Shown one piece after another: positions 28,413 to 47,722 of a DNA stretch of 64,000 nt; the first letter of the stretch is position 1; each line of letters begins with the position of its first letter. The notes under the pieces are model-generated. The model did no database searches. It was not told the origin of the DNA and was given only the letters and a program-made list of their open reading frames with translations. The position numbers were made by a program, and so were the translations under genes. The stretch covers positions 2,624,001 to 2,688,000 of the forward strand of contig OZ250172.1 in NCBI GenBank assembly GCA_965237905.1, in the 5' to 3' direction. The stretch is from Nitrospinaceae bacterium. GTDB lineage: Bacteria > Nitrospinota > Nitrospinia > Nitrospinales > Nitrospinaceae.

Positions 28413-29294
28413 TCAAAAATGATTTTCCCTATCGAGGGAGCGGTACTGGATGGCTTCGGCGACGTGCTCGGCGGTGAGGGGTTCCACGCCGTCCAGGTCG
28501 GCGATGGTGCGCGAGACTTTGAGTATCCGGTCGTGCGCCCGTGCGCTCAGTCCCATCTTGTCGATCGCTAGCGCCATGATCTGCTTCGATGCGTCGTCCA
28601 ATTGACAATGTTGCTTGAGCTGTTTGGTAGTCATCCCGGCGTTGAAAAAGGTTTGAGAGTCCTTAAACCGGCCCAACTGCACCTGCCGCGCTTTTTCCAC
28701 CCTATCGCGGATGTTCGATGAAGGTTCGCCCCCCGCTTCCGATGACAGTTCCTTGTATTCCACCGACGGCACCTGGATGTGGATATCGATCCGGTCCAAC
28801 AGGGGGCCGGAAATCTTCGACACGTACTTTTTGATCATCGGCGGCGTGCAGGTGCATTCGCGTTTGGGATCGGTCCGGTATCCGCACGGGCAGGGATTCA
28901 TCGCCGCCACCAGCATGAAGTCGGTGGGATAGGTGATCGACCTGGAGGCGCGCGCGATCGACACCTTGCCGTCCTCGATCGGTTGCCGTAAAACTTCCAG
29001 CGCGTTGCGTTTGAATTCCGGCAGTTCGTCGAGGAACAACACGCCGTTGTGCGCCAGCGACACCTCGCCCGGCATCGGCACCGTGCCGCCGCCGATCAAT
29101 CCCGCGTCGGAGATGGTGTGGTGCGGCGAGCGAAACACGCGCGTGGGGATCAATCCTTTGCCGTTGTCGAGCAGTCCCAGCACGCTATGGATCTTCGTGG
29201 TTTGAATCGCCTCCTCCAGTGAGAGCGACGGCAGGATGGTCGGCAGGCGTTTCGCCAGCATCGACTTGCCGCTTCCCGGCGGCCCGATGAGGAT
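28413..29294 (-). pseudogene. comM: ComM/YifB Mg-chelatase-like AAA+ ATPase, 3' part (split by the integrated element)
   Basis: [51 protein letters not shown]. Confidence 0.95.
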
Positions 29295-29313
29295 AATATT
29301 ATATAGTATTAAA
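29293..29313. repeat. Left att junction (AT core + aatattatatagtattaaa)
   Basis: The arm is the exact reverse complement of 47702-47720. Confidence 0.93.
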
Positions 29314-29455
29314 ATGATTAAGCTCAGCCTCTTAAACCGCAGGTCATACTGTGAAGTTGTTTTTGGCGTGGAGAAAAAATTAATTCGTAATGCTTTATAT
29401 TTCAATATCTTATGAGCTCACTTTTTATAAAAAAATGATCGAAAACTCTTGAGCT

Positions 29456-29493
29456 TGATATAATGTAGTGGAAGTCATGCAGTACTACATTAT
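29456..29493 (+). promoter_or_regulatory. Extended -10 promoter overlapped by a palindromic operator-like site
   Basis: TG-A-TATAAT at 29456-29464; ataatgtagt-N14-actacattat at 29460-29493. Confidence 0.5.
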
Positions 29494-29648
29494 GTTCGAC
29501 AAAGGGTCTGCTCCACCCCAATTACACCAGCATTGAGATTGGTGAATCGTGACTAGTGAAGCCGGTTGAGGATAAATAAGCCGGACACCACGTCTGGGGT
29601 AGCCCCACAACGTAACATTTGAGCTTAAAACCATAAGTCGGGCTGAAC

Positions 29649-29724
29649 AAAAAACCGGCTCTAGGTGAAGCATCTGCATTGGATTGATCTTCTTTGCGTA
29701 TGCAGCACCTAGAGCCGGTTTTTT
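29649..29724. terminator. Long hairpin with A/T tails (bidirectional terminator or attenuator-like)
   Basis: Perfect 19-bp stem aaaaaaccggctctaggtg / cacctagagccggtttttt. Confidence 0.65.
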
Positions 29725-29768
29725 ATTCACCCAACAATCTATTTATCACTTATTGAAAGGACAAGACA

Positions 29769-30338
29769 ATGAACAACTTAAAGCAGGCTGGAAATAAAAA
29801 TATTCACTTGGTACGGACATCTCCAGATCAATACAAGGGAAAAATAGGGGAAAGTTGGAGAAAAACCCTAAAGGGCATTTTGGAAACGGCAAAATTATTG
29901 GTTGAAGCAGAACTCCATCTCCATAAGGAAGACTGGAATGCACTTCTAGAAGATGGGTTACCATTTCACCGGACCATAGCCTACAAATTGATTAAGGTAG
30001 CAAAGGATAGCCGAATTAACGATCCTGCACATGTGCATCTGATGCCCTCGTCTTATGGAACTTTATATGAAATTGCCAAATTGAAGGATGAGGAGTTTGC
30101 CAAAGCAAAAGAAAGCCATGTATTAAATTCCAAGGTTCAGCGAAAAGACATAATCTCCTTTATAAAGAAAGAAAGAGGACTTGAGAACAAACCAAAAACT
30201 AACCAAACTTCGGGCAAAAAAATTGCGGAATTGTTTGTGGACGAAGAAAAGGTAGATCCCTTAAAAGCACTGAAGAAATTAGCAGAAGTTTTCGCGGAAA
30301 TGGATGGAGTTCATATAAAATACATTCAGGCTAAATAA
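29769..30338 (+). CDS. DUF3102-like mobile element protein
   Basis: ILETAKLLVEA...WNALLE..LPFHRTIAYKLIKVA...LYEIAKL resembles DUF3102; aagga RBS. Confidence 0.65.
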   Translation: MNNLKQAGNKNIHLVRTSPDQYKGKIGESWRKTLKGILETAKLLVEAELHLHKEDWNALLEDGLPFHRTIAYKLIKVAKDSRINDPAHVHLMPSSYGTLYEIAKLKDEEFAKAKESHVLNSKVQRKDIISFIKKERGLENKPKTNQTSGKKIAELFVDEEKVDPLKALKKLAEVFAEMDGVHIKYIQAK

Positions 30339-30450
30339 TTGGCAAAGCGATCAAGGGGTCCTGTAATTAGAAAGGACCCCCTAATCCAATATATTGTGTG
30401 GAATCCATTGCTAATTTAAACTCGAATATTTACACACTTTTTTTACAAAA

Positions 30451-32178
30451 ATGCCAAAAGCTTACTCATACATCCGAATGTCTACCCAAAAGCAGTTGAA
30501 GGGAGACAGCTTAAAAAGGCAGCTTGACTTATCAAAGGAATATGCCAAGCAACATAACTTAGAGCTAGACGAATCTATAAGAGATATCGGGATATCAGCG
30601 TTTAAAGGGAGAAACATCGAGGAAGGAGCTTTAGGGAAGTTTTTAAAGAAGATCCAAGATGGAGAAATCGAAGGTGGATCGTACTTGTTAGTTGAATCAC
30701 TTGATCGGCTATCAAGGAATGATGTCTTGACTGCCTTGAGCCATTTCATCTCAATTATTAATGCAGGGGTTAGAATTGTCACCTTGGCGGACAACAGAAT
30801 TTATTCCACTGAAGCGATAAAAGCCAATTACACAGAGTTAATAATCAGCCTTACCATCATGAGTAGAGCGCATGAGGAATCTTTGCAAAAGAGTCAACGT
30901 GTTTCAAAGGCTTGGGAAAGCAAAAGAGATAATCTGGAGCATAAAAAGATGACCTCAAAATGTCCAGCATGGTTGCGTTTGTCAAAAAATAAAAAAGAAT
31001 TCGAAATCATTGAAGACAGAGCAGAGTTGATCCGCAAAATATTCTCAGATAGCTGTAATGGGATGGGAAATTATTCGATTGTAAGAAACCTGAATGAAAA
31101 AAAAATTAAAAGCTGGGGGAAATCAACTGGATGGCAACCCTCTTACATCCAAAAAATATTGAATAATCGTGCTGTATTAGGAGAATTCCAACCGCATAAA
31201 TTAATCGAAAAAAAAAGAATCCCAATTGGCGAACCGATTAAAACGTATTACCCAAAAATAATCAATGAGGATCAATTTTATGAGGTGAAAGAAGGAAAAA
31301 ATAATAGAAATATAGGCGGCGGAAGGAAAGGAATAAATATATCAAACCTGTTCTCCCAAATAGCCAAATGCGGATATTGCGGAAGCTCTATGCACTATTT
31401 AAATAAAGGCAGGCCGCCGAAGGGAGGAAGGTATTTAGTTTGCGATAAAGCAAACCGAAAGCTCGGATGCTATATGTCTCTGTGGACATATGATGACTTT
31501 GAGATAAACTTTTTAACATTCGTTTCGGAAATCAATTTAGGAGAGTTATTCAAAGATAAACCCGATACCGAAATTGAAAACTTAAATAAATTGCTGACGT
31601 CCAAAAGGCAGGTGTACCAAGAAAATCAATCAAAAATTCAAAAGTTCACTAATCTGTTTTTGGAAATGAAAGAACCCCCAATATCTTTTGCAGAGAATGC
31701 GAAGGCTTTGGAAAGCGAAAACTCCGAGATTGAAATTGAAACTAAAGAGCTAGAGAGAAAAATAACAAAAATTAAAAGCAACCCTCAGGAGATAAAGGAT
31801 TGTCAGGGAGAAATCCAATTGTTTCTAAGTGAATTAAAAAACTTGGAGGGGGATGACCTCCTTATAGCTCGCTCAAAGATTAACCAAAACATTAAAACTT
31901 TAATTGAACGGATTGATGTGTTTTCCGTTGGCTTTGTGCAGGACGAATCGAGAATACGATTTTTGGAGAGTAAATTGGCGGAAATTGGTTTCAATGAGAG
32001 GAAAATAAAGGATTATTTTAAGTCGATTCAAAAATCATATAATCAAAAAACGGCAAGGCATTATATGGTGCTCTTTAAGGACGGTTCATTCAGATTTATT
32101 AGGCCAGGTTTTAGGGATCCGAAAATATATGTGACTATGACAACTCCTTTAATAAATCTTGATTTTTCCCGCCTTTAG
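30451..32178 (+). CDS. Large serine recombinase (integrase)
   Basis: YSYIRMST catalytic Ser, ESLDRLSR, recombinase domain, zinc ribbon CGYCG...C...C, coiled coil; 575 aa. Confidence 0.96.
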   Translation: MPKAYSYIRMSTQKQLKGDSLKRQLDLSKEYAKQHNLELDESIRDIGISAFKGRNIEEGALGKFLKKIQDGEIEGGSYLLVESLDRLSRNDVLTALSHFISIINAGVRIVTLADNRIYSTEAIKANYTELIISLTIMSRAHEESLQKSQRVSKAWESKRDNLEHKKMTSKCPAWLRLSKNKKEFEIIEDRAELIRKIFSDSCNGMGNYSIVRNLNEKKIKSWGKSTGWQPSYIQKILNNRAVLGEFQPHKLIEKKRIPIGEPIKTYYPKIINEDQFYEVKEGKNNRNIGGGRKGINISNLFSQIAKCGYCGSSMHYLNKGRPPKGGRYLVCDKANRKLGCYMSLWTYDDFEINFLTFVSEINLGELFKDKPDTEIENLNKLLTSKRQVYQENQSKIQKFTNLFLEMKEPPISFAENAKALESENSEIEIETKELERKITKIKSNPQEIKDCQGEIQLFLSELKNLEGDDLLIARSKINQNIKTLIERIDVFSVGFVQDESRIRFLESKLAEIGFNERKIKDYFKSIQKSYNQKTARHYMVLFKDGSFRFIRPGFRDPKIYVTMTTPLINLDFSRL

Positions 32179-32328
32179 ATCAAGTTAAATCCTCTATGAT
32201 CTATTCTTTTTTTGGCCTGATATTATGGGTTACTCCAAAACGAATCTTCTTTTAATCCAAGATAATCAAATCATACATGGTAGGCACATGTGCCACGAAT
32301 CTTAGGAGATTAAATCAAACCTAACAAC

Positions 32329-32398
32329 AGCTGGTCTGGTAGTAGTAGCTAGTCTGGTAGTAGTAGCTGGTCTGGTAGTGGTAGCTGGTCTGGTAGTA
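32329..32398. repeat. Tandem repeat, 4 x 18 bp (agctggtctggtagtagt), iteron-like
   Basis: Units start at 32329, 32347, 32365 and 32383 (last one partial), with at most one mismatch each. Confidence 0.9.
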
Positions 32399-32625
32399 CC
32401 AAATGGTAAGGTAATAACATCCAGTTTGTTAGGAGTGGGAATACCTATTTTTACCCTTTTTGTCCTTTTAATTTAAATTACAAGTGGCACACGTTCCATT
32501 GTTATATAATCTGGGTAATTATGCCCTCGTCGATGATAGCATTTAGAGCTGTTAGCAGAAAAGAGGTAATGGTCAAAGGCAGAAGGTCTAACTTTATGTA
32601 GGGTGCAGCTTAAAGGGGCAGGTTA

Positions 32626-33015
32626 TTAGTTGCGATTATATTTTTTTATGATTCTTCTTACCCCGGTTTTAGTCCATCTTTTCCCCCTAATAGTTGGAAT
32701 ACAAGCTTCGGCATCTAACCAATCAGCAATCCTCTCTAAGCTAAACTCTTTCTCCAATAATGGCTCCATTTCTTTCCATACTTTTTTTTGATACTCTTCC
32801 GCTTTTTTAATTTTTGCTTTCCTTGCAGCAGAGGTATCTTTATTCCTGACTTGGTCTAGATTAGGGTTCCCTAGTTTGATCCCCCTTTTTTTCCTCTCTT
32901 CTAAAGCAGCCTTGGTGCGCTGAGAGATTAATATTCGTTCTTCTTCCGACTTCCTAGCCATTCCGGTTAATACCCTATAAGGTAATTTATCAAATTTCTG
33001 GATACCCTTTAGCAC
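32626..33015 (-). CDS. Truncated serine-resolvase-like protein (C-terminal half only)
   Basis: EERILISQRTKAAL...GIKLGNP and SLERIADWL...RGKRWTKTGVRRI; no N-terminal YxRVS catalytic domain. Confidence 0.75.
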   Translation of the reverse strand: MLKGIQKFDKLPYRVLTGMARKSEEERILISQRTKAALEERKKRGIKLGNPNLDQVRNKDTSAARKAKIKKAEEYQKKVWKEMEPLLEKEFSLERIADWLDAEACIPTIRGKRWTKTGVRRIIKKYNRN

Positions 33016-33104
33016 AATGATACCCCATGGATTATAAATTATACTGGGAAAACCAAAACCTCAGAAGGAAAATAAATTCTTAACCTTTTAGCACAATGAT
33101 ACCC
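33008..33104. repeat. 18-bp direct repeat tttagcacaatgataccc x2 in the divergent promoter region
   Basis: Copies at 33008-33025 and 33087-33104. Confidence 0.8.
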
Positions 33105-33176
33105 TTGATCTTATAAATATAATTAAGGGGTTTTCAGAGTTGAATTTTGGGTGTCACTAATCGAAAGGGTATTTGA

Positions 33177-33788: not shown

Positions 33789-34105
33789 AACTGAGAACCT
33801 TTGTGTGCGATGCACCATTTGGAAACGGAGTTAAAGCTCCAAATTCTGGTTCCTTTAAATATTGGGTACGATTTGAAGAGTATTTAATAATGCTCTTGTT
33901 AAAATACCTACGTCTAAATTAGGTTCATAAGAACTACATTTCCCCAGTTTCCTAAATCACAAATCTCTAAAACCTTTTTAAATATATAAAACCACATGTT
34001 TCTTTTAATAATAATGAGTTAGAACAATTTGGACCTTGAGTTCTGAAAATAAATATTTTAATTTATTTAAAACCTAAGAATTTAAAAATATTTTTGAGGG
34101 TTAAA

Positions 34106-34702
34106 ATGGCCAAACAAGGTAAAGCTAAAGTTCTTAGTGAGCAGGAATTCAAGAGGGTGGTTCGTCATCAAATTACCGCAAAACATGGGCTCAGAAATGT
34201 TGCACTTTTGCACATCTCCTTTTATCTAGGCCTACGAGCCAAGGAAATGGCTTCCCTAAAAATTTGTGATGTCGTTGACTCCACCGGGAATTTAAAGGAG
34301 GAGCTTACCCTCACAAGAGAAATGACAAAGGGTAATCAAAGCAGAGCTATTTATCTCACAAATCCAAAAGTAAGAAAGGCCCTCCAGGAATACATTGAGC
34401 ATAGGAAAAATATCGAAGGAACCTATTTTCATGAAGCCTCATTATTTCGAAGTCAAATTTCAGGAAAGTTCTCTCCAAATACAATGCAACTGCTTTTCTC
34501 AAATATGTATAAAGACGTGGGCCTTGAGGGCGCATCAAGTCACAGTGGACGAAGAAGTTTCGCAACCAAGTTATTGGAGCAGGGTGTGAATATTAAATCG
34601 GTTCAAACTCTACTTGGTCATTCCAGTATCATGACCACATCCATTTACGTAGAGGACAATCCTTATTTATTGGCGAACATCTCACGGAATTTGAAAATAT
34701 GA
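34106..34702 (+). CDS. Small tyrosine recombinase (catalytic domain only)
   Basis: GLRAKEM, TKG, SHSGRRSFAT, LLGHSSIMTTSIY; 198 aa. Confidence 0.92.
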   Translation: MAKQGKAKVLSEQEFKRVVRHQITAKHGLRNVALLHISFYLGLRAKEMASLKICDVVDSTGNLKEELTLTREMTKGNQSRAIYLTNPKVRKALQEYIEHRKNIEGTYFHEASLFRSQISGKFSPNTMQLLFSNMYKDVGLEGASSHSGRRSFATKLLEQGVNIKSVQTLLGHSSIMTTSIYVEDNPYLLANISRNLKI

Positions 34703-34720
34703 TAATTTAATTAGGCCTAA

Positions 34721-35838: not shown

Positions 35839-37119
35839 ATGAGAAGACTTGCTGTCCAAAAACGGGATGATGGATATTCCTCCAACAAAGACTATCAACA
35901 ATTTCACAGTAAGGTATCTCAACGTATAGTCCCGGGAGAAAAGGAAAATCGTATAGTATTTACCACAGAACTACAAAAATTGGATGTAAGTAGTGATTTT
36001 GTAGGATTTGGTGGATTTATTTTAGCAGAAGATCCGATCGTACTAAAACTGACTATCCAGATTGATTCTTATGAAGATTCGAAAGAGTTTCAAATTGGAA
36101 CAATTTGGAACCGAATTGGGATAGCTATACCAGCAACTAAAGATGAACGTGCAACTCTAATTATGGAATGGGAAAATGTTACAAGTATAAATGTATGGGG
36201 TTTTGATTTAGGTTATCTTAACCTTCCTGAAAGTATTAGAAATAAGAAACCGGATATTGATGTTCTTAATGAATCACATTTATGCCCTGAAACTTTTTAT
36301 CTACCAAATCAAAATGCAATAGACTTAGATATAGAGGAATCTTCATCTACCCATTTTTCGATTGTTAACGGGTCAGAGATAATATTAAAGAAATGTTCAT
36401 ATTGTCAAAGAATGTTGCCAGTTAATCCAGAATTGCTTGGATCGCTATCTTTCCATAAACATAACGCAAAATTAACTAAACACCAAAATGAATGTAGATC
36501 ATGTAAGAAATGGCGTATAAATAATAGTTTTAATCCTTTAAGAACCACCGATCAATTACATGAGTCATCTGTCATTACACGTGAGCGTAAGATTTTACTT
36601 AAGGAACCAAAGATTCTACAAGAAATAAAGGATAGAACAGGGGCTGGATTAAAATCTCAAATCTGGAAAAAATTTGGGCGCAAATGTTTTTTCTGTAATG
36701 AACCAATTGAGCTAGATGGATTTCAGCTAGACCACACACGACCACTTTCTTACTTATGGCCAATTGACGAACATGCCACCTGTTTGTGCCCTGAACACAA
36801 CAACCAAAAGAAAGATAAATTTCCTATCGAATTCTACACAGAAGATCAATTAAAATCTTTATCAGAAATAACTGGACTAAGTTATGAAGAGTTAACAATT
36901 AAAGATGTGAACCAAAAAGAATTAGATCGAATCATTTCTAATATATCTACTTTTGCAAAAGAATGGGACCCACGTACTTTTGCAGCAATTGCAAGAAAAA
37001 TAAAAGAGTTGAGAAAAAATACAGATCTCTTTATAATTTTAAATGAAGCTGACGAAGAGACATATACTGAATTAGTACAACAACTGGAAGACCGTCCAGA
37101 TCCTGTCGTAAATGAATAG
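35839..37119 (+). CDS. HNH endonuclease, probable restriction enzyme
   Basis: CFFC...LDHTRP...CPEHNNQK HNH core, extra CSYC...CRSC zinc finger; convergent with the MTase. Confidence 0.85.
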   Translation: MRRLAVQKRDDGYSSNKDYQQFHSKVSQRIVPGEKENRIVFTTELQKLDVSSDFVGFGGFILAEDPIVLKLTIQIDSYEDSKEFQIGTIWNRIGIAIPATKDERATLIMEWENVTSINVWGFDLGYLNLPESIRNKKPDIDVLNESHLCPETFYLPNQNAIDLDIEESSSTHFSIVNGSEIILKKCSYCQRMLPVNPELLGSLSFHKHNAKLTKHQNECRSCKKWRINNSFNPLRTTDQLHESSVITRERKILLKEPKILQEIKDRTGAGLKSQIWKKFGRKCFFCNEPIELDGFQLDHTRPLSYLWPIDEHATCLCPEHNNQKKDKFPIEFYTEDQLKSLSEITGLSYEELTIKDVNQKELDRIISNISTFAKEWDPRTFAAIARKIKELRKNTDLFIILNEADEETYTELVQQLEDRPDPVVNE

Positions 37120-37124
37120 GTTTA

Positions 37125-39851
37125 TTATTTTGACGGTTTAAAAAATAATAGTGAATGTGTCGTCGTTAATCCTTTATCCTTTATCCCATGTTTAGCAACT
37201 GTCTGCACATTTTCAATCACTTCACCTTCTAGGGTGAAATATTCAAGAGCTATTGCTTTTAATTCATTAACCATGTCTTTTCTACCTCCGCCACCGAGGT
37301 GAAGAATTAGCAATCCATTCTTTTTTATCATACTCTTGCATAGTGAGAAGAATTCCCTATAAACAGAAATATTCTTTATTTGCTGCCTTTCCAAAAACTC
37401 TAAACTATCTTCTTTAAAATTGCTTTCACTCCAGCCACAAAACCAAAGTCTTAACCAATTAGGACGATCAAACCTCATACCATAAAATGGCGGTGATGTT
37501 ATTATTGCATCAAATTTATGATTGATATGGTTTTTTATATCTCTAAAGTCACCATGAATCCCTAACCCTTTTTGAAATTCTTTTGACAAGGGTTTTGATA
37601 AAGCTCTCTCGGCTCGTTCATATATTTTTTTGTATACATCTTTATATACTTTTGGACCCGAAGGAGAGAAGGGTGTTATAGGGTGTGATGTACATGATAG
37701 CGCATACGGTCTATTGCCATGTAAAACATGCAACAACGAGGCCCAAACAAAATTCTCGGAATCTGACCTTTGATCTAATTTCTTTTTAAGAAAGATCTTT
37801 CTAAGTTTTAGGATCTCCTTTAGTGTTTTTTTGTGGTAATAATCCTTAACCGATGAATTTAAACCAAATTCTGCAAAATTAAAATCATTTTTAGTAAGGT
37901 TGACTTTTGATGCTTCCTTTTGGAGTTTTTGAATGGATTTTCTAACGTTCGACAGAAATGGTGGACGTAACTTTGCCCGTCCTATTAAAGCCGCAAATGG
38001 ACTTTTATCATTGGTGACAACATTTACACCTTGCATAGCCCCCTCAAAAGGTATTGTTCCAACACCTCCTAGGGGATCTAAAAGACTTCCTCCTTTCGGG
38101 ACGAAATACTTAACAAGCCAATGAGACATTGATGGTTTTAGTTTGCCTTGATATGAACAAAGAGAATGTAGAGGATGACCCCAAGTTTTTTTTGAGTATG
38201 GTTGATTCTTGTAAGGTAATTCTCGCTGAAATTGCTTAATTCTTCCCCCTAAAGAGTCACATTTTTTGCTTAATGCTTTTATATGTCTTACGTTCTTGGG
38301 CTTCTCAAAGATTATTTCTGCTTGAACAAGCTCACTTTTATCCCGAGACATTCTTTTTGCTAATATATGTTCGTTTTTTACATTAAAACCAGCTTCTCTA
38401 GCAACATCAATAAGTAGCTTATTTGTAGGAACATGTACACCATAAAACTTAGAGTCTCCTATGTCTAAAACGAAATCACCGCCGGGTTTCATACTGTTAA
38501 AGACACCTTTAAATACTTCATACATATCAGAGAAATAATGACGAGCCATTGTGGGAATTCGTTTGTCTTTTGATTCTAAATCTAGTTGTTTTGCTATCTT
38601 TTCAACTTTTTTAAAATCAAAATAAGATTCTTTTTTCGAGACATCATTTATGCCTCCAGTCACAGTTAAATTTCGGTATCCCCTAAGTTCTTTTTCAGAT
38701 TTAATAAAACCTAAAAGCCAAAGCTCAATTTTTGTATTTCTAAAGTAATTTGTACCGTTCAAATAGGGTGGTGATGTCAGAACTAGATCAAAAGCATTTC
38801 TATACTCATCCGGAATTGATTTAGAGTCTGAGGACACTTTTTTTGTATAAGCTATATTCGTTGGTGAGGATTTAACATCTTGTACCATCCTTTTTACACT
38901 ATCGGATATTAAGCCTGAAACATTGACAACTCTATTTTTGTATTCATCTGGTCTTCTGCGACGTAAGTCAGCTCGTCTAGTCATGTTTGAACATGCAACT
39001 GCATTAGATGTACATGCCAGCATTAATATATTACAAGCATGTTGGTAACCGTCTGATATATCCTCCGCAATGCTTAATGCAGCAAGTAACTCTCGAATGT
39101 GCTTATCTTCAAAATAGTCTCTTTTAGGGAATGCCTCATAATATTGTTCAAGCGATACCCTTTTTCTTGCCTTTACCAAATTATTTTTATCTATAACCTT
39201 TAAATATTCAGTTGCTATCGAATTAAACTTATTCCAATTCTTTTTTGCCCATCTTACAGATAAAATCTTTGTCTCAGCAACAAAGGACATAAACGGATTT
39301 AGCTCAGAGTAAAATGATTGAATCCCTAACATTGAAGCAGCTAGTTGTACGGTTCCTGATCCACCAAAAGGATCATATATGGTTTGGGGTCTAAGGCGGT
39401 TTCTAAGAATACTGTCTCTTGCATATGTTGCGGAGAATCCTTCTACATACGGGTACCACCCATATATACCTTGTCTTAAACTATCTTGGAATGTCAAACC
39501 AACTGATGTTTCACCTTCGTTTGTGATTTGCATATCAACAGTTCCAAAATCGAAAGACATTTGACCATTTCCATTTTTGCGTCCGTTGTTAAATCCTTTT
39601 TTTAATATAGAGACACAAATATTACTAAGACTTCTACTTTCCTCATGAGCCTTTGCTTCTAAATCTTCAACAATTGGATCGCCTAAAGCTAATCGAAAAT
39701 CACGACTATTAAGTCCTCTAAGATATGTAATAAATTCTTTGGTTATCCCATCTCTAGGCTTAGCCGGTAAGCTAATGTTGACCCTAGCGGATTTGCCAAT
39801 ACGAACACGTTCCTTAGGGAAATAAATGGTTTTGAATATATATTCTGGCAT
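37125..39851 (-). CDS. Tandem double amino-DNA methyltransferase with N-terminal ribbon-helix-helix-like domain
   Basis: Two motif sets: YDPFGGSGT...TSPPY and LDPLGGVGT...TSPPF; start set at MPEYIF. Confidence 0.88.
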   Translation of the reverse strand: MPEYIFKTIYFPKERVRIGKSARVNISLPAKPRDGITKEFITYLRGLNSRDFRLALGDPIVEDLEAKAHEESRSLSNICVSILKKGFNNGRKNGNGQMSFDFGTVDMQITNEGETSVGLTFQDSLRQGIYGWYPYVEGFSATYARDSILRNRLRPQTIYDPFGGSGTVQLAASMLGIQSFYSELNPFMSFVAETKILSVRWAKKNWNKFNSIATEYLKVIDKNNLVKARKRVSLEQYYEAFPKRDYFEDKHIRELLAALSIAEDISDGYQHACNILMLACTSNAVACSNMTRRADLRRRRPDEYKNRVVNVSGLISDSVKRMVQDVKSSPTNIAYTKKVSSDSKSIPDEYRNAFDLVLTSPPYLNGTNYFRNTKIELWLLGFIKSEKELRGYRNLTVTGGINDVSKKESYFDFKKVEKIAKQLDLESKDKRIPTMARHYFSDMYEVFKGVFNSMKPGGDFVLDIGDSKFYGVHVPTNKLLIDVAREAGFNVKNEHILAKRMSRDKSELVQAEIIFEKPKNVRHIKALSKKCDSLGGRIKQFQRELPYKNQPYSKKTWGHPLHSLCSYQGKLKPSMSHWLVKYFVPKGGSLLDPLGGVGTIPFEGAMQGVNVVTNDKSPFAALIGRAKLRPPFLSNVRKSIQKLQKEASKVNLTKNDFNFAEFGLNSSVKDYYHKKTLKEILKLRKIFLKKKLDQRSDSENFVWASLLHVLHGNRPYALSCTSHPITPFSPSGPKVYKDVYKKIYERAERALSKPLSKEFQKGLGIHGDFRDIKNHINHKFDAIITSPPFYGMRFDRPNWLRLWFCGWSESNFKEDSLEFLERQQIKNISVYREFFSLCKSMIKKNGLLILHLGGGGRKDMVNELKAIALEYFTLEGEVIENVQTVAKHGIKDKGLTTTHSLLFFKPSK

Positions 39852-40048
39852 TAGGAAGTTCTCTATCACAATTATTGTGATATTATAAATTATCAACTTC
39901 AAATTCACGACAGAAATTTACGAAACCCTCTTAATTCATGAAATTTGTGTCTGTCAATAAATATGGGTTTGGCGGCCTCCGGGGCCTAAAAGCATTAAGT
40001 CCAGCCAATTTCCCCGTCTAAAACCCTGTTATCACCTTTTAAAAATGA

Positions 40049-40245: not shown

Positions 40246-41652
40246 TTACGCCAAAAGTGATTTTGCTTCTTCAGATTTTTGTTTTAGGTAATTATGTAGT
40301 TCCTTCAAGAGTTTCAACTCGTTTCCATCAGATTGCTCTATCAATTCTTCTGTTTGATTGATGGCTTGAGGTAAGGTCAACCAGGGAACTTTTCCATCAG
40401 CCTCCAAAACCCTTCTAGCGAAAGACTTATCAAGTTTTAGACGATTATTTTTTGATAAAACTTCTGGTTTTTCAGAATAAATTAAACGCATACCAAGTTT
40501 TTTTAGTCTTTTGTCTTTTATCTTGCTTAGATGGTATTCTCGATCGGCCCAATCAATTTTATGAAAAGTTTCCATTTGATCCTGATCTTCCCAAGAAGGG
40601 AAGCTATCATAAATTTGATCTTCAACATGGTCGGAGGGTTCTTTTATTTTACGAGTACCCATAAATATTGAAATTAACTTATCTTTTAATTTTGTGTTTC
40701 CATGTAAATATTTGGCCCTACGTTCTAATTCTTTCCTATCTAACTCATAGGACTTCATGTAATCAGGCGCATCATCCAAAGATAAAATTATTGGAGAAGA
40801 GTTTGTCTTTAGTATTCGAATAGGTTTTGGTTGAGAAAGTATTTTTTCCTCTAATTCATCTTCGCTCAAATCCTCAAGATCCTTCGGGTCTACTGATAGA
40901 TTAAAAACTAGCATATCTGTATTCATAGAAGGATTCAAACCTATCCCCGTTACAACCCAAGAGATTCCTTTCCTCCGAAAGAACTCTGAAAAAATAAACA
41001 GAGATTCTTCTTTAATGAATTCAATCACAGCAGCTTTATTTCCGAATTGCATAAAATTTGACCAAATATTTGGGGCGTGCTCAGAGGCTAATCTGCATAA
41101 GTGAAGGGTGGCTTCAGCATCCGCCATCGCCTCATGTGCTCCTTCATGACTAAAACCGTTTGCAGGGGCTAGTTGATCTAGTTTGAAAATACTATTCCCT
41201 TTTGCATCAGTTGGGATATTTAGAGCGTTAAGGGAAAAAATACTTATCGCTTGAACTATTTTCATACTATCAGAACGACAATTATTGTTTGTGTTTGTGA
41301 GATATGGTGGATGCAGTGTTTTGTATAAAGCTTGACGCAATAGATGTTCATCAAAACCCAAAGAATTATGGCCAATAAAAACAGATGGCGACCAAGCCAT
41401 AAGCTTTTCGCGAATAGACAGTAACATTTCGTAATGAGAAGGCAAAGATGGATCGGTAAATTGCTGAACCGAAATTTTTGTAACTTTAATTGCACCAGGA
41501 GACGGTACTACATAGGGAAGCAAGCGTGAGCGGCACTCAAATCTATCTATCTCATTAAGATCTGCATCAGTCTTGATTGCGGCAAATTGTAAGATTTGGT
41601 CAAACGAAGTATTTGTTCCAGTAGTTTCAGTATCGTAGAAAACAAAGGCCAT
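40246..41652 (-). CDS. sbcB: Exonuclease I-like 3'-5' ssDNA exonuclease (DEDDh)
   Basis: YDTETTG, QFAAIKTD, GHNSLGFDE, FKLDQLA.ANG, AHEAMAD; ggagg RBS. Confidence 0.9.
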   Translation of the reverse strand: MAFVFYDTETTGTNTSFDQILQFAAIKTDADLNEIDRFECRSRLLPYVVPSPGAIKVTKISVQQFTDPSLPSHYEMLLSIREKLMAWSPSVFIGHNSLGFDEHLLRQALYKTLHPPYLTNTNNNCRSDSMKIVQAISIFSLNALNIPTDAKGNSIFKLDQLAPANGFSHEGAHEAMADAEATLHLCRLASEHAPNIWSNFMQFGNKAAVIEFIKEESLFIFSEFFRRKGISWVVTGIGLNPSMNTDMLVFNLSVDPKDLEDLSEDELEEKILSQPKPIRILKTNSSPIILSLDDAPDYMKSYELDRKELERRAKYLHGNTKLKDKLISIFMGTRKIKEPSDHVEDQIYDSFPSWEDQDQMETFHKIDWADREYHLSKIKDKRLKKLGMRLIYSEKPEVLSKNNRLKLDKSFARRVLEADGKVPWLTLPQAINQTEELIEQSDGNELKLLKELHNYLKQKSEEAKSLLA

Positions 41653-41672
41653 AAAAACCTCCAAAAGATACT

Positions 41673-42188
41673 TTAACCTAATAAATTTCCCAAACGAAAG
41701 CGCATAGCCGATTTGCTAACCTTAAATTGGATAGCAAGTTTGTTTAATTCTTCATCCTTATCAATATCGATACCTTTTCCGCCAAGAGCTTCTTCAATAA
41801 ATTTTTTAGGCATTAGAAGTTCTGCGGCAAAAGAATTAGCTTGTATCTCTATTCCATTTATTCCCGCAGAAGATATTGAATCTCGCATAAGCATAGGAAA
41901 TTCTTTATCAACATGTATTCCGTCGGAAATTTCATTTTTGTGAAAAATCAAATGACCAATTTCATGTGAAATTGTAAATCTTTGCCTATTAGGGTGATGT
42001 AATGAATTTACTCCTATAATTGGGCAACCATTTTTAAAGAAAATCATTCCTGAAATTTCATCGTCTAGAGGAGAATATCGCAGTTTTGCTCCTAGCTTTT
42101 TTGCAATGCGATCAACAGGAACAGGACCATAAACCACATTATATTCATCTAACAATTGTTTAGCACGATTTTCGAATTTTGTGGCCAT
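41673..42188 (-). CDS. ImmA/IrrE family metallopeptidase (CapP-like)
   Basis: RQRFTISHEIGH, EIQANSFAAELLMP; aggag RBS. Confidence 0.92.
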   Translation of the reverse strand: MATKFENRAKQLLDEYNVVYGPVPVDRIAKKLGAKLRYSPLDDEISGMIFFKNGCPIIGVNSLHHPNRQRFTISHEIGHLIFHKNEISDGIHVDKEFPMLMRDSISSAGINGIEIQANSFAAELLMPKKFIEEALGGKGIDIDKDEELNKLAIQFKVSKSAMRFRLGNLLG

Positions 42189-42226
42189 ATTACTCTCCTT
42201 ATACATGCTTAAGACTCAATTGCACC

Positions 42227-42556
42227 TTAAGCATCTCTAATAATTTTAAATATTGCCTGCTTCTGTTCTTCTGTTAAATCTTCGTCCTTATGCAATCGAA
42301 AGGAAGACACTGAGGATTTTGATGGTGTAAATTTTTCTATGGGGGGTAAGAGCTTGTCCAATGAATCAAGATTTAACACTTGAGCAATGCAATAAAGGCG
42401 GTGGGTCAATACATGCTGTCTCCCGGCTTCAATATTTGCTAAAGATGCCCGAGAAATTCCAATTTGATCAGCAAGTTGACCTTGTGTAATGTCCTCACTT
42501 TTACGAATTTTTTTTATTTTTTGTCCAACGAGGAGTGAAAATTTGTCAGGTTCCAT
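42227..42556 (-). CDS. XRE-family HTH repressor (CapH-like)
   Basis: GQKIKKIRK..ITQGQLADQIGISRASLANIEAG. Confidence 0.92.
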   Translation of the reverse strand: MEPDKFSLLVGQKIKKIRKSEDITQGQLADQIGISRASLANIEAGRQHVLTHRLYCIAQVLNLDSLDKLLPPIEKFTPSKSSVSSFRLHKDEDLTEEQKQAIFKIIRDA

Positions 42557-42561
42557 AACTC

Positions 42562-42666
42562 CTTATACTAGTAAACACAGGATATGTCAAGCAAGCAAAC
42601 AATTTGTTTGGGATACAAACATATATATTTTTTTTATATTGACATCTGGCAGCAGATTGATATGCT
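42562..42666. promoter_or_regulatory. Divergent sigma70 promoters and candidate operators between the regulator operon and CBASS
   Basis: + strand TTGACA(42639)-16-TATGCT; - strand TTGACA(42590)-17-TATAAG; palindromes caaacaa-t-ttgtttg, tgtttg-N5-caaaca and atctg-N4-cagat. Confidence 0.65.
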
Positions 42667-42753
42667 CACAGATAAGTAATGGCACCACGTTTCTCGGAAT
42701 CAGCTATTTATCCTGGTTGATCCGACCTGAATCCAAAATAGGAGGCAATAATC

Positions 42754-43767
42754 TTGAAGGAAGGGGTAGAAGAAACTGGACATCCGAAGCGGCGTATCCT
42801 ATGCATCGATGGGGGCGGCATCCTCGGTACATTCCCTGCGGCCTTTTTGGCCGAACTGGAGCAGCATCTCGAACACCCGATCGGTTCGTACTTCGACCTG
42901 ATTGCGGGAACATCTACAGGCGGCATCCTCGGGATTGCCCTGTCCTTGGGTCTTCCCGCATCCGAAATTCTTGACCTTTACGAAAAACGAGGTCCAGAGA
43001 TTTTCGGCCAGGATCATGGTGCGCTTATAAGTTTGATTTTAAGGAAAATTCGCGGTTTCCGGCAGCTATACAGACGCAAATATGATTCCGATGCGCTTCG
43101 TTCCGTTCTAAAGGAAGTTTTGGGTACCAGGCGTATTGGTGAAGCTCGGACCCGACTGGTTGTTCCGGCTTGGAACCCAGTGGCTCAATCAGTTTACATT
43201 TATAAGACCGCACATCACCATCGCCTGAAAACAGATTACCGATCGTTCGCCGTCGATGCTGCACTCGCCACGTCTGCAGCGCCGACCTATTTCCAGCATC
43301 ACATCACGCAAAACGATGTTGGATTGCTTGACGGGGGAATCTGGGCGAATAACCCGATCGCCATAGCCGTAGTGGAGGCCATTGCCGTTTTGGGTTGGCC
43401 TCGGGAATCATTGCAAATTTTAAGCCTTAGCTGTTTGGATGAAGCCTACTCAATCCCGAAATGGGTGGGAGTTGGCACACTCGGATTGAAAATCCGCAAT
43501 CTATTTATGGACGGCCAGTCGAAAGGCGCTATGGGCATCGCCAAGCTACTCACAGGCCATGAACATGAACGCAAAGCCATTTACCGGATCAGCCACACAA
43601 TCCCATATAACGCCTTCAAGATGGATGACACGCGTGTGATTCAGGACCTGAAAGGTCTCGGGCATACCATGGCTCGTGATAGGAACCCTGTTCTGGAACC
43701 CGTATTTTTTGACAAACCGGCGAAAGAGTTCACGCCGATTTACCAACTTAATGAGGAATCGCAATGA
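42754..43767 (+). CDS. capV: CBASS patatin-like phospholipase effector
   Basis: DGGGILG, GTSTG, SAAPTYF, DGGIWANNP; adjacent to the CD-NTase. Confidence 0.92.
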   Translation: MKEGVEETGHPKRRILCIDGGGILGTFPAAFLAELEQHLEHPIGSYFDLIAGTSTGGILGIALSLGLPASEILDLYEKRGPEIFGQDHGALISLILRKIRGFRQLYRRKYDSDALRSVLKEVLGTRRIGEARTRLVVPAWNPVAQSVYIYKTAHHHRLKTDYRSFAVDAALATSAAPTYFQHHITQNDVGLLDGGIWANNPIAIAVVEAIAVLGWPRESLQILSLSCLDEAYSIPKWVGVGTLGLKIRNLFMDGQSKGAMGIAKLLTGHEHERKAIYRISHTIPYNAFKMDDTRVIQDLKGLGHTMARDRNPVLEPVFFDKPAKEFTPIYQLNEESQ

Positions 43768-44963
43768 CAATTGACACAGAAAAATACAACAGATTTTTGG
43801 ATAGCGTTGCGGAAGAAATTGATATACCGCCGAGCAAATATCAGGATGCGGTTGAGCGCTACCAGTCCGTCGGAAAGTGGCTGGAGGCAGGTGAGTACTT
43901 AGAATCTTCCGGCAAGCCAAGCATTTACCCGCAAGGCTCTTTTCGCCTGGGAACGGTGGCCAGGCCTATAAGGGGCGGCGTCGAGGCAAGCTATGACATT
44001 GATCTTGTATGTGAGTTGCCGATCGAAAAAAAACGGACCGACCCGTATTCGATCAAGACTATGGTCGGTGATCGCTTACGCGAGCACGGCACATATCGCA
44101 AATTGCTTGACAAGGAAGGTAAGCGATGCTGGACGCTCGAATACGCCGAAGAGGATGAGGTTGGCTTTCATCTGGACGTTCTGCCATCCGTCCCGGATCA
44201 AAAGGGTCTTCTAGATACCTCTATTGCCATCACCAATAAACAAGCAGGAGTCTACGATTGGTCTTCGAGCGATCCGAATGGCTTTGGGCTCTGGTTTGAT
44301 CGCCAGAATCGGGCGGCGTTCGAGGTCGCCCTGATCGAACAAAAGCGATCCATTCAGGAGCGGATGCCCAATCTTTATGGGAAAGTTGACGACGTTCCAG
44401 ACCAACTCGTCCGCACGCCCCTCCAAAGGTCGATTCAGCTCATGAAACGTCACCGTGATGTGAAGTTTAATGACGCACAGTATAATGGTTACGCGCCGAT
44501 CTCGATCATCATTACGACCTTGGCTGCGCAGTTTTATCAGGATGAGCCGGATACCTTTTCGGCGCTGACCAGAATTATCGACCAACTCCATGAGCATGCG
44601 GTTCTTGTTGAAAATGGGACCGTGAACAAAGCTCTCGCGCCCTTCAGTCCTATTAAACGCACGTCTGACGGAAAGTGGTACATAGGCAATCCGGTCAATT
44701 CAGATGAGAATTTCGCCGACCGCTGGCACGAGGATAAACATGCACGTGCGAGGGCCTTTTTCTCTTGGGTGGCTGCCTTAAAGGAGGACCTCATAAACAT
44801 TTTGGCTGAAACACGTCCTGATGTCATGCGCAAACGACTTACCGCTGTGCTTGGTGCGGCTGTTGTGTCTGGTCATCTCGACCTGATCTCACCAGCCCAG
44901 GCCGCCGTGGTCAGTGCCCCAAGTATTCATATCTCGGGAGCAGCTAAACCCTGGAGGGCATGA
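43764..44963 (+). CDS. cGAS/DncV-like nucleotidyltransferase (CD-NTase)
   Basis: YPQGSFRLGT, YDIDL, FHLDVLP, KRHRD, NPVN..ENFADRW. Confidence 0.95.
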   Translation: MTIDTEKYNRFLDSVAEEIDIPPSKYQDAVERYQSVGKWLEAGEYLESSGKPSIYPQGSFRLGTVARPIRGGVEASYDIDLVCELPIEKKRTDPYSIKTMVGDRLREHGTYRKLLDKEGKRCWTLEYAEEDEVGFHLDVLPSVPDQKGLLDTSIAITNKQAGVYDWSSSDPNGFGLWFDRQNRAAFEVALIEQKRSIQERMPNLYGKVDDVPDQLVRTPLQRSIQLMKRHRDVKFNDAQYNGYAPISIIITTLAAQFYQDEPDTFSALTRIIDQLHEHAVLVENGTVNKALAPFSPIKRTSDGKWYIGNPVNSDENFADRWHEDKHARARAFFSWVAALKEDLINILAETRPDVMRKRLTAVLGAAVVSGHLDLISPAQAAVVSAPSIHISGAAKPWRA

Positions 44964-45713
44964 GTGAAGGAAGAACTCTCCGCCCAAATCGCCGAGCTAC
45001 AGACGGTTCATACGGGTCTGACAAAAATCGCGGAGAAGGATAACGAAACTGTCGTTTCCGGACCGTTGCCGTTCAAGGCATCGGCTGACGGGCTTAGCCC
45101 AATTACCGAATGCTTTGAGATAGAATTAATCATCCCCAATAAATACCCGAAGATCCTGCCGCGTGTTAGGGAAACCGGTGGGAAAGTCGACGGCGATTAT
45201 GACCACCTCTATAAGGATGGAACGCTCTGTCTAGCTGTCCCGATCGAGGAGCGCAGGAGATTTGGAGAACAACCCACCCTTCTAGGTTTTATAAACAAAC
45301 TGGTAATTCCCTATTTTTTTGGCTACTACTACTGGGAAAAAAACGGCAAATATCCTTTCGACGAGCAAGCCCATGGCCCCGATGGGATTGTCCGGCATTA
45401 TATGGATTCCCTCCATCTACCGGATGAAATCTCAGCTCTGGCTGTCGTTTCCTACCTTCTTGAGTATGGCTATCGCGGTCATCATTTATGTCCTTGTGGA
45501 AGCAGCGAAAAGGTTCGAAATTGCCATGGCAAAGCATTACACGACCTACATGAACAGCACAATGAAATCACTTTAAAAAATGATTTCTTGTCGGCGCTGG
45601 ATGTCTGCATCAACAAAGTAAAAGAGGACAAACTTAAAATTCCTGAATCCCTTAAAAGACAGGTTCTTCGAATTTACAATAAGATCAAAAACAAAATCTT
45701 CGATGTTGACTAA
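44964..45713 (+). CDS. Prokaryotic E2-like protein with C-terminal SEC-C motif (E2-only CBASS ancillary)
   Basis: IPNKYP..LP.V...HLYKDGTLCL E2 core with Cys; CPCGS.EK.RNCH SEC-C motif. Confidence 0.82.
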   Translation: MKEELSAQIAELQTVHTGLTKIAEKDNETVVSGPLPFKASADGLSPITECFEIELIIPNKYPKILPRVRETGGKVDGDYDHLYKDGTLCLAVPIEERRRFGEQPTLLGFINKLVIPYFFGYYYWEKNGKYPFDEQAHGPDGIVRHYMDSLHLPDEISALAVVSYLLEYGYRGHHLCPCGSSEKVRNCHGKALHDLHEQHNEITLKNDFLSALDVCINKVKEDKLKIPESLKRQVLRIYNKIKNKIFDVD

Positions 45714-45756
45714 CAGAGTTGGGTCTTATAATTAATAATATATAATATAATAATTT

Positions 45757-45954
45757 ATGGCCATCTTCATCCCCCACAGATGCCCGATATGCTTCGAGAG
45801 CGTGACGCTGATACTGCCGCAGCATAAGGGTGGTGCGTTTAAGGGTACAGCGAAGGGGCAGTGTTTAAATTGCATGGATGAGCAGGAACACGATTTAACT
45901 GTCCCCGCCAATAGGAAAGATTTAATCAAAGTCAAAGGACCAGAACGGCAGTAA
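45757..45954 (+). CDS. Small putative zinc-finger protein
   Basis: CPIC...CLNC in 65 aa. Confidence 0.5.
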   Translation: MAIFIPHRCPICFESVTLILPQHKGGAFKGTAKGQCLNCMDEQEHDLTVPANRKDLIKVKGPERQ

Positions 45955-46062
45955 CCGCGATCAGGAGAATTTTAGAGAGGACCAATCACCCAAAGCAGAC
46001 GTTCGCCTAACGGCTTCGACCGGCAGGAACCGGCCATAAGCGGACATTTACCCATATGCGGA

Positions 46063-46347
46063 TTATTCATCAATAAATTCATTTGCTGGAGATTTGATAA
46101 AATCACTACTCAATGGGAAATATGCTCGTAGACCTCCATCATCTATGCATCCGTGAACTCTAATATCACCATCAGGTTTATCGTCCCAATGAGTGATGAT
46201 TTCAATATGGTATTTCTTACCATCTTTTGATGTTACTTCCCTGGTAACAGGTTCTTTTTCGATATTCTTTTGTAAATCTTGATGAGAAATAGGACGGAAT
46301 AATTCTAATTCATTTTCAAGTAATTTAATTGCTTCTTGTTTATCCAT
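46063..46347 (-). CDS. Hypothetical protein (cassette-like gene)
   Basis: 94 aa AT-rich ORF tightly bounded by repeats. Confidence 0.75.
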   Translation of the reverse strand: MDKQEAIKLLENELELFRPISHQDLQKNIEKEPVTREVTSKDGKKYHIEIITHWDDKPDGDIRVHGCIDDGGLRAYFPLSSDFIKSPANEFIDE

Positions 46348-46505
46348 AAGTTTTTCAATTTCCGCTTTAGGTCGTTTTCAGATTAAGTAATATTTCGGCC
46401 ACAAGCGGACACTTGCCCAAGCACAAGAAACCCCGCTCTAGTCGGGGCCTCATCTTGGTCCTCGGTTCTTCTTGTTATGCGCTGAGTCGAGGGGAAGGGC
46501 GGACC

Positions 46506-46994
46506 TTATCTGGACCTGTGCGCTTCCAGCTCGATCTCGATCATGAACCCGGGCAGGGCGAGCCCTTTGACCTCGAGCCAGGTTCCGGTCGGAAACTGCT
46601 TTGTGTAGATCGAGTTACGATACGAAGCGACCTCGAGAAACTTCGCCATGTTGGTCGTATAGACGTTCTCAACTATCACGTCGTCGAAGGTATAGCCGTA
46701 GTGCTTCAGAACCTTATCCAGATCGGAGTAAGCGTTTTTCATCTGCTGCTCCAAATCGCCGACAGCTGTCGGGTTGCCCTCATCATCCATGCTCACGGCG
46801 CCCGAGATCTTGATGTCATCACCGATCTTCACGGCATGCGTGTAGCCGTAGGCCTTTTCGACCTCCGGTCGCAAAAGGAAATACTCCGGCATTTCTTTCG
46901 CCAGCACGATCGTCTCGTCGGATTCCGGGCCGGGGCAGCCGGACAGGAAAGCCAGGAAGAGTGTTGCAAGGACGAGCAGTGATTTTTTGTTCAT
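46506..46994 (-). CDS. RidA/YjgF family protein with export signal
   Basis: YTHAVK.GD.IKISG, VIVENVY, WLEVKGLA.PGFMIEIE; lipobox-like LSGC; aggag RBS. Confidence 0.85.
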   Translation of the reverse strand: MNKKSLLVLATLFLAFLSGCPGPESDETIVLAKEMPEYFLLRPEVEKAYGYTHAVKIGDDIKISGAVSMDDEGNPTAVGDLEQQMKNAYSDLDKVLKHYGYTFDDVIVENVYTTNMAKFLEVASYRNSIYTKQFPTGTWLEVKGLALPGFMIEIELEAHRSR

Positions 46995-47160
46995 TGTTTT
47001 TCTCCTCAGATTTGTCAAACGGCCGCTTTGGGTCGTTTGCGGGCTAACGATCAGCGCGATCGAACGTCCGCTTTCCGTGCTAACTGTTATGACTCATCGT
47101 CTGTCCACAATAGGATTTCTTCTTCAAAAATCCCCCACCCGCTCCACCAACTCCGGTTGG

Positions 47161-47613
47161 TCATTCAACCGGACACCACCCCACCCTTGCTCCGCCGTGA
47201 TACTCCCTACCAAGTCCCTGCTGGATGATCTTCTCTGCCAGATTGTCCCCGCTGGTCAGCTTCACGTCCGCCACTACTCGACCGGCGTACTTCCCATGCT
47301 TGACGTTTGCCAGTAGCACCACCTCACCCAAGATCAGCCCTTTCACGAAGTCGCGTGCTTCAATGGCCTTCTGTTTCTCAGATTCACACTTTCCACGGAT
47401 TTCAGGAGTATCCACGCCATTAACCCGGACGCTGGCCTTTGCTTCCAGACCGGGCCACGGGTAGGCTTCCACCGTGAACGTGTCGCCGTCATAGACCTTT
47501 ATGACCTTGGCGGACACCGGGCCAGTAATGGCGGGATCAGCCCATGAGGTAACGGGGGCCAGGAGAAGGCATACGGCAAGAATCAGGATCGGGATTTTGT
47601 TCGGAGTATCCAT
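47161..47613 (-). CDS. Thermonuclease (SNase) family protein
   Basis: VIKVYDGDT, VRVNGVDTPE, KYAGRVVA; signal peptide. Confidence 0.9.
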   Translation of the reverse strand: MDTPNKIPILILAVCLLLAPVTSWADPAITGPVSAKVIKVYDGDTFTVEAYPWPGLEAKASVRVNGVDTPEIRGKCESEKQKAIEARDFVKGLILGEVVLLANVKHGKYAGRVVADVKLTSGDNLAEKIIQQGLGREYHGGARVGWCPVE

Positions 47614-47701
47614 ACCCGAAACTATACACCGATTGGTGATTATTCGGACACCATAAAAAGGCCAGCAGAGAGAGCCGTTTTCTGGTTGAATATACCTTTA
47701 A

Positions 47702-47722
47702 TTTAATACTATATAATATTAT
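47702..47722. repeat. Right att junction (tttaatactatataatatt + AT core)
   Basis: Exact inverted copy of 29293-29313. Confidence 0.93.

Follow-up and report, generated by a model that had tools for sequence, protein, structure and literature searches.

The magnesium chelatase/ATP-dependent protease gene, known as comM or yifB, is targeted by 12.4% of the predicted site-specific integrases in the Durrant 2022 survey, which also reports competence genes as enriched among the targets of large serine recombinases (LSRs) (PMC10083194). Here, an island of about 18.4 kb is described that interrupts the minus-strand comM gene of a Nitrospinaceae bacterium (assembly GCA_965237905.1) within a stretch of 64,000 nucleotides of contig OZ250172.1 (positions 2,624,001 to 2,688,000), which is referred to as the window and provides all coordinates used below. 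With high confidence, the segment 29293-47722 is read as a mobile element that interrupts comM at an AT dinucleotide common to both junctions; the enzyme that inserted it was most likely the LSR that the element itself encodes (30451-32178). The island belongs to the enzyme class of the survey and has the same target gene family, its integrase being at most 45% identical to the family members that could be placed. The initial annotation of this DNA, made from the sequence alone, had called comM an insertion hotspot, and this is documented for such integrases in that survey (PMC10083194).

Several described systems share features with the island. The serine recombinase sr1WO of phage WO integrates into the Wolbachia magnesium chelatase gene, the gene halves flanking the element (PMC9203015). 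Insertion into a comM homologue by a serine recombinase is common to both; phage WO is absent from the 20 phage records matching the window integrase at E ≤ 1e-20 and is therefore no close relative. In the Listeria phages A118 and phi10403S an LSR likewise splits a competence gene, comK, with a 2-bp crossover and a pseudo-palindromic attP; the natural core of A118 is the asymmetric GG and its symmetric cores were engineered, whereas the symmetric core in the window is natural (PMC3556126). A118 and phi10403S are phages, in contrast to the window island with its cargo of defence genes. Regulated excision is known for phi10403S, and is without support for the window island.

The AbaR-type Tn7-like islands of Acinetobacter comM, which employ TnsABC-type proteins and create a 5-bp duplication, are also cargo islands in comM that entail loss of ComM, yet unlike the window island they do not arise by site-specific serine recombination. 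A self-complementary AT at the point of strand exchange is itself familiar from site I of the Tn3/gamma-delta res site. Tn3 and gamma-delta encode small resolvases, however, whose directionality depends on topology and on accessory sites; as large serine integrases lack such a filter, a symmetric core should abolish polarity in them.

Junctions and attachment sites

At its left end the island reads ...gatgagg, AT and a 19-nt arm, and at its right end a 19-nt arm, AT and gatgttg... (Table 1). The two arms are perfect inverted repeats of each other, with a 19/19 reverse-complement match, and since the base just outside each arm is unpaired, the attP rebuilt by joining the island ends is a perfect palindrome of 40 bp (19 + 2 + 19) and no longer. 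Beyond these 40 bp the two sides of attP are asymmetric. The bases adjacent to AT are unlike between the junctions (g/t on one side and a/g on the other), which limits the sequence common to both junctions to exactly 2 bp. An attL and attR that share a crossover of only 2 bp, within compact att sites whose arms are inverted repeats, are as expected of a serine integrase. The host flanks form a weak inverted repeat which, together with the arms, spans 36 nt with 81% complementarity, in keeping with an attB.

Coincidence is excluded. For the 21-nt island end no chance matches are expected (100 shuffles of the window), and exact matches to the 19-nt arm are confined to the two island ends in the whole 3.09-Mb genome. 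Both junctions are crossed without any difference by independent Logan contigs from X22 and X23, the two runs that contain the complete stretch and are probably its source. An exact search of viral contigs with the rebuilt attP gave no match. Within the window no spare attP with another core was accepted: the best two-arm resemblance to attP inside the island (34066-34105, just upstream of a tyrosine recombinase fragment) matches at 26/38 positions and was rejected on this count, its AA centre and its weak self-symmetry.

Overall, the initial annotation had proposed a serine-integrase island in comM with a perfectly palindromic 40-bp attP, a self-complementary AT core and attachment sites that can be read from the sequence; the junctions, the split gene halves, the intact recombinase and the 19/19 arms bear this out, and both attB and attP are resolved to the single base.

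The recombinase and a proposed integration mechanism

The catalytic domain of the recombinase (PF00239, residues 4-159, E 5.9e-18) is followed on its C-terminal side by PF07508 at 188-281 and PF13408 at 300-352. Residues 5-12 read YSYIRMST, wherein Arg9 and Ser11 are nearly invariant in 23 relatives; these we take to be the expected catalytic-motif residues, with Ser11 as the nucleophile. The zinc-ribbon residues Cys307, 310, 331 and 340 are invariant. The gene is present as a single copy in the genome.

Integration would proceed by a 2-bp staggered cut made by the recombinase and subsequent strand exchange between attP and attB. Here, attP would be the 40-bp palindrome on a circular form of the island, and attB the stretch covering comM codons 213-222. 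The core would be AT in this case because the element can presumably recombine only where AT opens codon 218 of comM.

The split comM gene and its unoccupied counterparts

The disrupted target is a Mg_chelatase/ComM homologue, as indicated by Pfam matches on both halves and by the gene being whole in congeners. It is cut between codons 217 and 218, directly ahead of the Walker A codons, and the AT at 29293-29294 represents the first two bases of codon 218. Empty sites could be compared at 11 loci, 10 of which had a readable match. In four congeners (L009, L010, L012 and L013; L denotes loci) the uninterrupted comM reads HNI-I-LIG with a single AT at the join, in congener L011 it has GT (Val) at that point, and five relatives at a greater distance show TT or CT (Leu). 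Joining the island flanks at the shared AT, which had been said to restore comM in frame, yields exactly the frame of the congeners. The unoccupied attB with AT is also encountered in marine-sediment or marine metagenome runs: contigs of X1, X2 and X4 run from 29294 directly into sequence like the N-terminal part of comM, and their comM is about 90% identical to that of the window.

ComM is inactivated as long as the island sits inside the gene. In five congeners (genomes G002, G003, G004, G005 and G009), one of them 97% complete, the N-terminal part of comM was not found with the same query; there, comM may be lost, broken or unassembled.

A family of recombinases at comM

Relatives of the recombinase are numerous, with 2292 proteins at E ≤ 1e-20 among 8000 scored. 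Family loci were fetched from genomes (80) and metagenomes (80). A piece of comM adjoins the recombinase in 69 of these 160 loci, and in 57, from many phyla, comM is broken at codon 217/218. A second break site lies near comM codon 29/30 and is represented by 13 loci (L025, L029, L066, L067, L072, L081, L088, L128, L152, L167, L173, L174 and L176), of which L088 and L174 carry the codon-217/218 break as well. In the integrase tree L071, from the codon-218 site, and L066/L067/L167, from the codon-30 site, are close neighbours, and by eye the host-side sequences of the two sites are alike (GG..GGCC..AC.ATC).

Both junctions at codon 217/218 are readable in seven loci in addition to the window (that of L034 by eye). 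In every case the first two bases of codon 218 fall within the overlap, which measures exactly two bases in four of them. Across the 57 loci the crossover dinucleotide is CT in 41, TT in 13, AT in one (L051, with an Ile codon) and TG in two whose register is uncertain. A search of 301 genomes around the host of L051 gave four more family members, among them G134, in which the codon is Ile, the overlap comprises just AT and the arms match at 17/19. The crossover core thus tracks the host codon, Leu going with CT or TT and Ile with AT; codon 218 is Ile in the genus of the window and Leu (CT or TT) in most hosts. In the genome G404 (L214, L219) the junction dinucleotides differ, with CT on the side of the N-terminal part of comM and TT on the side of the C-terminal part, which points either to a synonymous change that came later or to recombination despite one mismatched base in the core.

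The symmetry of the arms extends to the relatives, at 18/19, 17/19, 15/19, 15/19, 12/19 and 11/19, with 7 of 16 compared positions in L088; the lower values may come from possibly composite loci. A second attP-like palindrome was noted by eye beside the used end in L097, L055, L057 and L039/L040, and in L097 the spare site is centred on CT and the used site on TT. Two proteins with 88% and 83% identity to the recombinase sit on contigs of 2.1-2.6 kb, and the metagenome relatives among the matches listed have best-segment identities of 36-57%.

The novelty implied by the initial annotation is not sustained by these comparisons. Near-palindromic attP arms are a trait of the family, in which the 19/19 of the window is the extreme of a trend and no exception, and the class of comM-targeting integrases has already been published. 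Since serine integrases in comM are documented, the island does not represent a new kind of system but a clean example, if a slightly unusual one. Its unusual feature is the symmetric AT core that matches the Ile codon of the host. Only engineered symmetric cores, and no natural serine-integrase element with such a core, were found described in the literature, in which survey supplementary tables may contain some. In the main text of Durrant 2022 'palindrom' has 0 occurrences and no crossover position is named, and its supplementary tables may list AT-core sites (PMC10083194); apart from that survey, the only relevant literature found on comM together with a serine recombinase or integrase consists of the phage WO papers.

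The symmetric core and orientation

In the textbook account strands are exchanged at the two central bases of a serine-integrase site, and the asymmetry of this 2-bp core is all that tells the enzyme which way the site points. Symmetric core mutants of A118 are reported to synapse productively in both alignments, giving deletions and inversions (PMC3556126), and a structural model agrees with a polarity that is set by the core (Rutherford et al. 2013, PMC3783163). By analogy, the symmetric AT core is expected to remove polarity in the window island. As core and arms are both symmetric, integration would be expected in either orientation, and an inverted island would keep identical junction sequences over 40 bp because its arms are identical. 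If a directionality factor were available, attL x attR recombination would give inversion as often as excision.

Three elements with an AT core have been recognized (the window island, L051 and G134), of which two run antisense and one runs sense to comM. No two of their integrases exceed 41% identity, and the AT state thus arose more than once. Among the 57 loci broken at codon 217/218, 48 elements are antisense and nine sense to comM, and orientation to comM changes many times along the integrase tree. A comparison of orientation in related genomes had been proposed as a check of the polarity claim; both orientations do occur among the three AT-core elements, but elements with CT or TT cores likewise occur in both.

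In one clade with attP just behind the integrase gene, the core in the sense of the integrase is AG in L062/L043, AT in L051 and CT in L061. Any single-base step from AG towards CT passes through a symmetric core, and the family may flip its orientation via the symmetric AT core, to judge from these four distant sequences. Tentatively, and with slightly less than an even chance of being right, the island is regarded as part of a naturally polarity-free system that may enter comM either way and flip in place, in which AT cores would be one-mutation stepping stones (AG to AT to CT) through Ile-218 hosts and would have arisen at least three times.

Excision and inversion

Neither the circular attP junction nor an inverted junction was found in any contig, a form of data that drops rare forms. 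A single low-depth contig joins the flanks (depth 2), with 12 unlike letters between them and 6 other letters in 42; it looks like the comM of another organism. A contig from X1 (955 nt, depth 9.4, matching the window at 29215-29313) consists of a related C-terminal part of comM, AT and the same 19-nt arm, after which it is unlike the window. Compared by eye with the reverse complement of the right-end interior, the next 13 bases of this contig agree at 11 positions and the bases after them do not agree at all, a match too short for the contig to be called an inverted copy. The 19-nt arm is thus used by another element or in another arrangement.

The genes dprA and comEC are kept as open frames in the genome. 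Judged by the sequence at the AT join, which gives the frame of the congeners, precise restoration of comM is possible in principle.

Weighing the explanations

A number of points weigh against the favoured reading. Two recombinase fragments and a jump in GC content at about 42.5 kb make the island a mosaic, and with an internal copy of the right arm in addition its history may go beyond one integration. The nearest family member with a readable junction has a recombinase that is only 45% identical to that of the window, and the transfer of the site rule therefore rests on the family pattern and not on a close relative. Orientation does not separate the core types, at 2 antisense/1 sense for AT versus 46/8 for CT/TT, a count that leaves out two loci of uncertain register. 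The attP of a serine integrase is usually about 50 bp, as it is in A118 (50 bp; PMC3556126), and the outer asymmetry means that binding may not be fully polarity-free; by analogy, the polarity of exchange would be set by the core alone despite such asymmetric binding outside the 40 bp. In the assembled contigs examined, the island is seen only in integrated form. No recombination directionality factor (RDF) was recognized, as no small open reading frame (ORF) had a family match in Pfam, PADLOC, PHROGs or NCBIfam. The ORF next to the integrase (29769-30338) was considered for this role and set aside; it has no family match, and no relative among 5.8 billion proteins.

The last two points and this orphan ORF leave the idea of an excision switch for ComM, put forward in the initial annotation, without support; gene switches of this active-lysogeny type are exemplified by phi10403S/comK and skin/sigK. 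They also favour the strongest rival, in which the island is a fixed resident that was inserted once by the serine recombinase, has no directionality factor and no longer excises or inverts; comM would then be permanently inactivated and the symmetric core without present consequence. The decayed recombinase fragments in the island fit this account, as do the contigs of X22 and X23, which, the lone flank-joining contig set aside, show only the integrated form. On the other side, the recombinase frame is intact, the arms match at 19/19 and both AT copies are unchanged, which points to a recent event or a maintained function, and the contigs are unable to show rare excision. RDFs, moreover, are small and diverse proteins that often cannot be recognized from sequence. 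A fixed resident is a serious contender, if somewhat short of probable.

A second alternative concerns the extent of the island. Two tandem elements may be present, or one plus a captured piece, such that 45752-47701 with its RidA-like and nuclease genes would lie outside the integrase's own element and the decayed arm at 45731-45751 would form its left bound. This internal copy closely follows the CBASS operon, 2 kb inward of the right end, and matches the right end at 18/21 in the same orientation, where 0 matches are expected in shuffles; a tandem or older element may have left it as a scar. The segment 45752-47701 also has a GC content of about 0.54, unlike the core at 30-42.5 kb. However, the internal site is one-armed (16/19 for the arm and 8/19 for the opposite arm) and is located in an AT-rich spacer, where shuffles of the whole window make chance matches look too rare. 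GC is host-like already in the CBASS block on the left of the site, which puts the GC boundary elsewhere, and canonical serine integrases are reported not to recombine attP with attL or attR (PMC3556126, PMC3783163). Overall, this arrangement is considered unlikely.

The two remaining alternatives, which replace the integrase by another enzyme, are both highly improbable. A DDE transposon bounded by terminal inverted repeats and duplicating 2 bp of its target would account for the 19-bp perfect terminal inverted repeats and the 2-bp direct repeat flanking them, but no transposase was found in any scanned ORF, the same comM codon is occupied beside a related serine recombinase in 57 loci with ends alike, exact copies of the arm in the genome number only two, and the repeat is AT and not the TA of IS630/mariner elements. 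Insertion by the tyrosine recombinase at 34094-34702 has in its favour the presence of a Phage_integrase domain, yet this protein of 202 aa covers only the C-terminal catalytic half of Xer-type models and lies 4.8 kb from the nearest island end, and the overlap of 2 bp marks serine recombinases, those of tyrosine recombinases being 6-8 bp.

Cargo, composition and origin

The features of the island are compiled in Table 1. A CBASS operon (42754-45713), for which NCBIfam CBASS_lipase scores above its cut-off, and a DNA methyltransferase are among the cargo; the 426-aa protein next to the latter is possibly its nuclease partner. The SbcB-like exonuclease adjoins the CapP/CapH pair, and no reverse transcriptase was seen alongside. 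As its cargo is anti-phage, the island most likely persists as a defence island.

Table 1. Coordinates (window) of the island, its attachment sites, the comM halves and other features
Feature	Position	Strand	Evidence or remark
comM 3' part, codon 218 onward	28413..29292	-	Walker A GPPGSGKS at start; Pfam Mg_chelatase 23-206/207, Mg_chelatase_C
AT crossover dinucleotide, left junction (attL, window orientation)	29293..29294	.	only these 2 bp common to both junctions
Left 19-bp arm, one attP half-site	29295..29313	+	reverse complement of the right arm without mismatch
189-aa orphan ORF just upstream of integrase	29769..30338	+	only weak DUF7205/KwaB matches
Large serine recombinase, 575 aa, apparently intact	30451..32178	+	Pfam Resolvase, Recombinase, Zn_ribbon_recom
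Five 18-bp tandem repeats, directly downstream of integrase stop codon	32311..32432	+	repeat search
Second serine recombinase fragment, Recombinase domain only	32626..33015	-	PF07508 5-50/102; phrog_125/phrog_95
Tyrosine recombinase fragment, catalytic domain only, 202 aa	34094..34702	+	Phage_integrase; XerC models positions ~105-276 only
426-aa protein, weak endonuclease VII-like	35839..37119	+	phrog_1035 E 1.8e-7; without Pfam, PADLOC or NCBIfam match
927-aa DNA methyltransferase	37125..39908	-	N6_N4_Mtase, UPF0020; PADLOC MTase_II E 1.5e-143
SbcB-like exonuclease I	40246..41664	-	RNase_T, Exonuc_X-T_C; PADLOC RTasSbcB E 1.4e-106; NCBIfam exodeoxyribonuclease I below cut-off
CapP-like metallopeptidase	41673..42206	-	Peptidase_M78; PADLOC capP E 1.3e-33
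CapH-like HTH regulator	42227..42556	-	HTH_3; PADLOC capH E 3.8e-11
CBASS patatin phospholipase effector	42754..43767	+	Patatin; PADLOC Effector 2e-97
CBASS CD-NTase	43764..44963	+	DncV-like NTFase/SMODS; PADLOC Cyclase 8.4e-115
CBASS E2-like Cap2	44964..45713	+	PADLOC E2 5.3e-79
Internal copy of right-end arm plus AT	45731..45751	+	18/21 bases; same orientation as right end
RidA/L-PSP-like protein	46506..47018	-	Ribonuc_L-PSP
Staphylococcal-nuclease-like protein	47161..47613	-	SNase; phrog_452 endonuclease
Right 19-bp arm, other attP half-site	47702..47720	+	19/19 against left arm
AT crossover dinucleotide, right junction (attR, window orientation)	47721..47722	.	2 bp common to both junctions
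comM 5' part, codons 1-217	47723..48373	-	Pfam ChlI, Mg_chelatase 1-28/207; translation ends ...AAAGGHNI

The GC content is 0.32-0.39 at 30-42.5 kb, rises to about 0.5 over the remainder of the island and lies at 0.50-0.58 in the flanks. The recombinase was not found in 40 relatives, where two other matches cover 65-87 residues at E of about 6-8e-4, nor did 119 further genomes of the phylum yield it. Based on this GC contrast and the absence of the recombinase from relatives and from genomes of the phylum, the island is viewed as a horizontally acquired, mosaic defence island. It is not recognizable as a prophage, with no virion structural, packaging or lysis gene in 16 ORFs compared with PHROGs and 28 compared with Pfam, nor as an integrative conjugative element, with no relaxase, coupling protein or type IV secretion gene among the 28 ORFs (Pfam), nor as a DDE transposon, with no DDE transposase in 28 ORFs by Pfam, 16 by PHROGs and 17 by NCBIfam.

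Two stretches near the right end, 45757-46048 and 47016-47074, reach summed contig depths of up to about 7500 in two marine metagenome runs, and many contigs skip the approximately 975 bp between 46046 and 47023, where the source assemblies break. For either stretch the genome contains one additional, partial copy elsewhere. Their interpretation as integron attC sites was dropped, as four of five folds are no better than shuffles (z +1.01, -0.72, +0.62 and +0.38); the fifth folded stretch, located between the two at 46345-46430, has a hairpin with z -2.71.

Implications

The combination of a natural symmetric core with a perfectly symmetric attP offers a ready natural test of the polarity rule of serine integrases. 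As the initial annotation held, the integrase and its sites are fully readable and in this respect make a ready tool candidate, but the symmetric core is a drawback for tool use, and a directional insertion tool would need to have it replaced. For the biology of such elements, the core following the host codon represents an adaptation to the target gene, and the independent occurrence of an AT core in three cases suggests a natural tolerance for loss of polarity. The host, for its part, faces a trade-off, in which CBASS and a methyltransferase are gained and ComM is lost.

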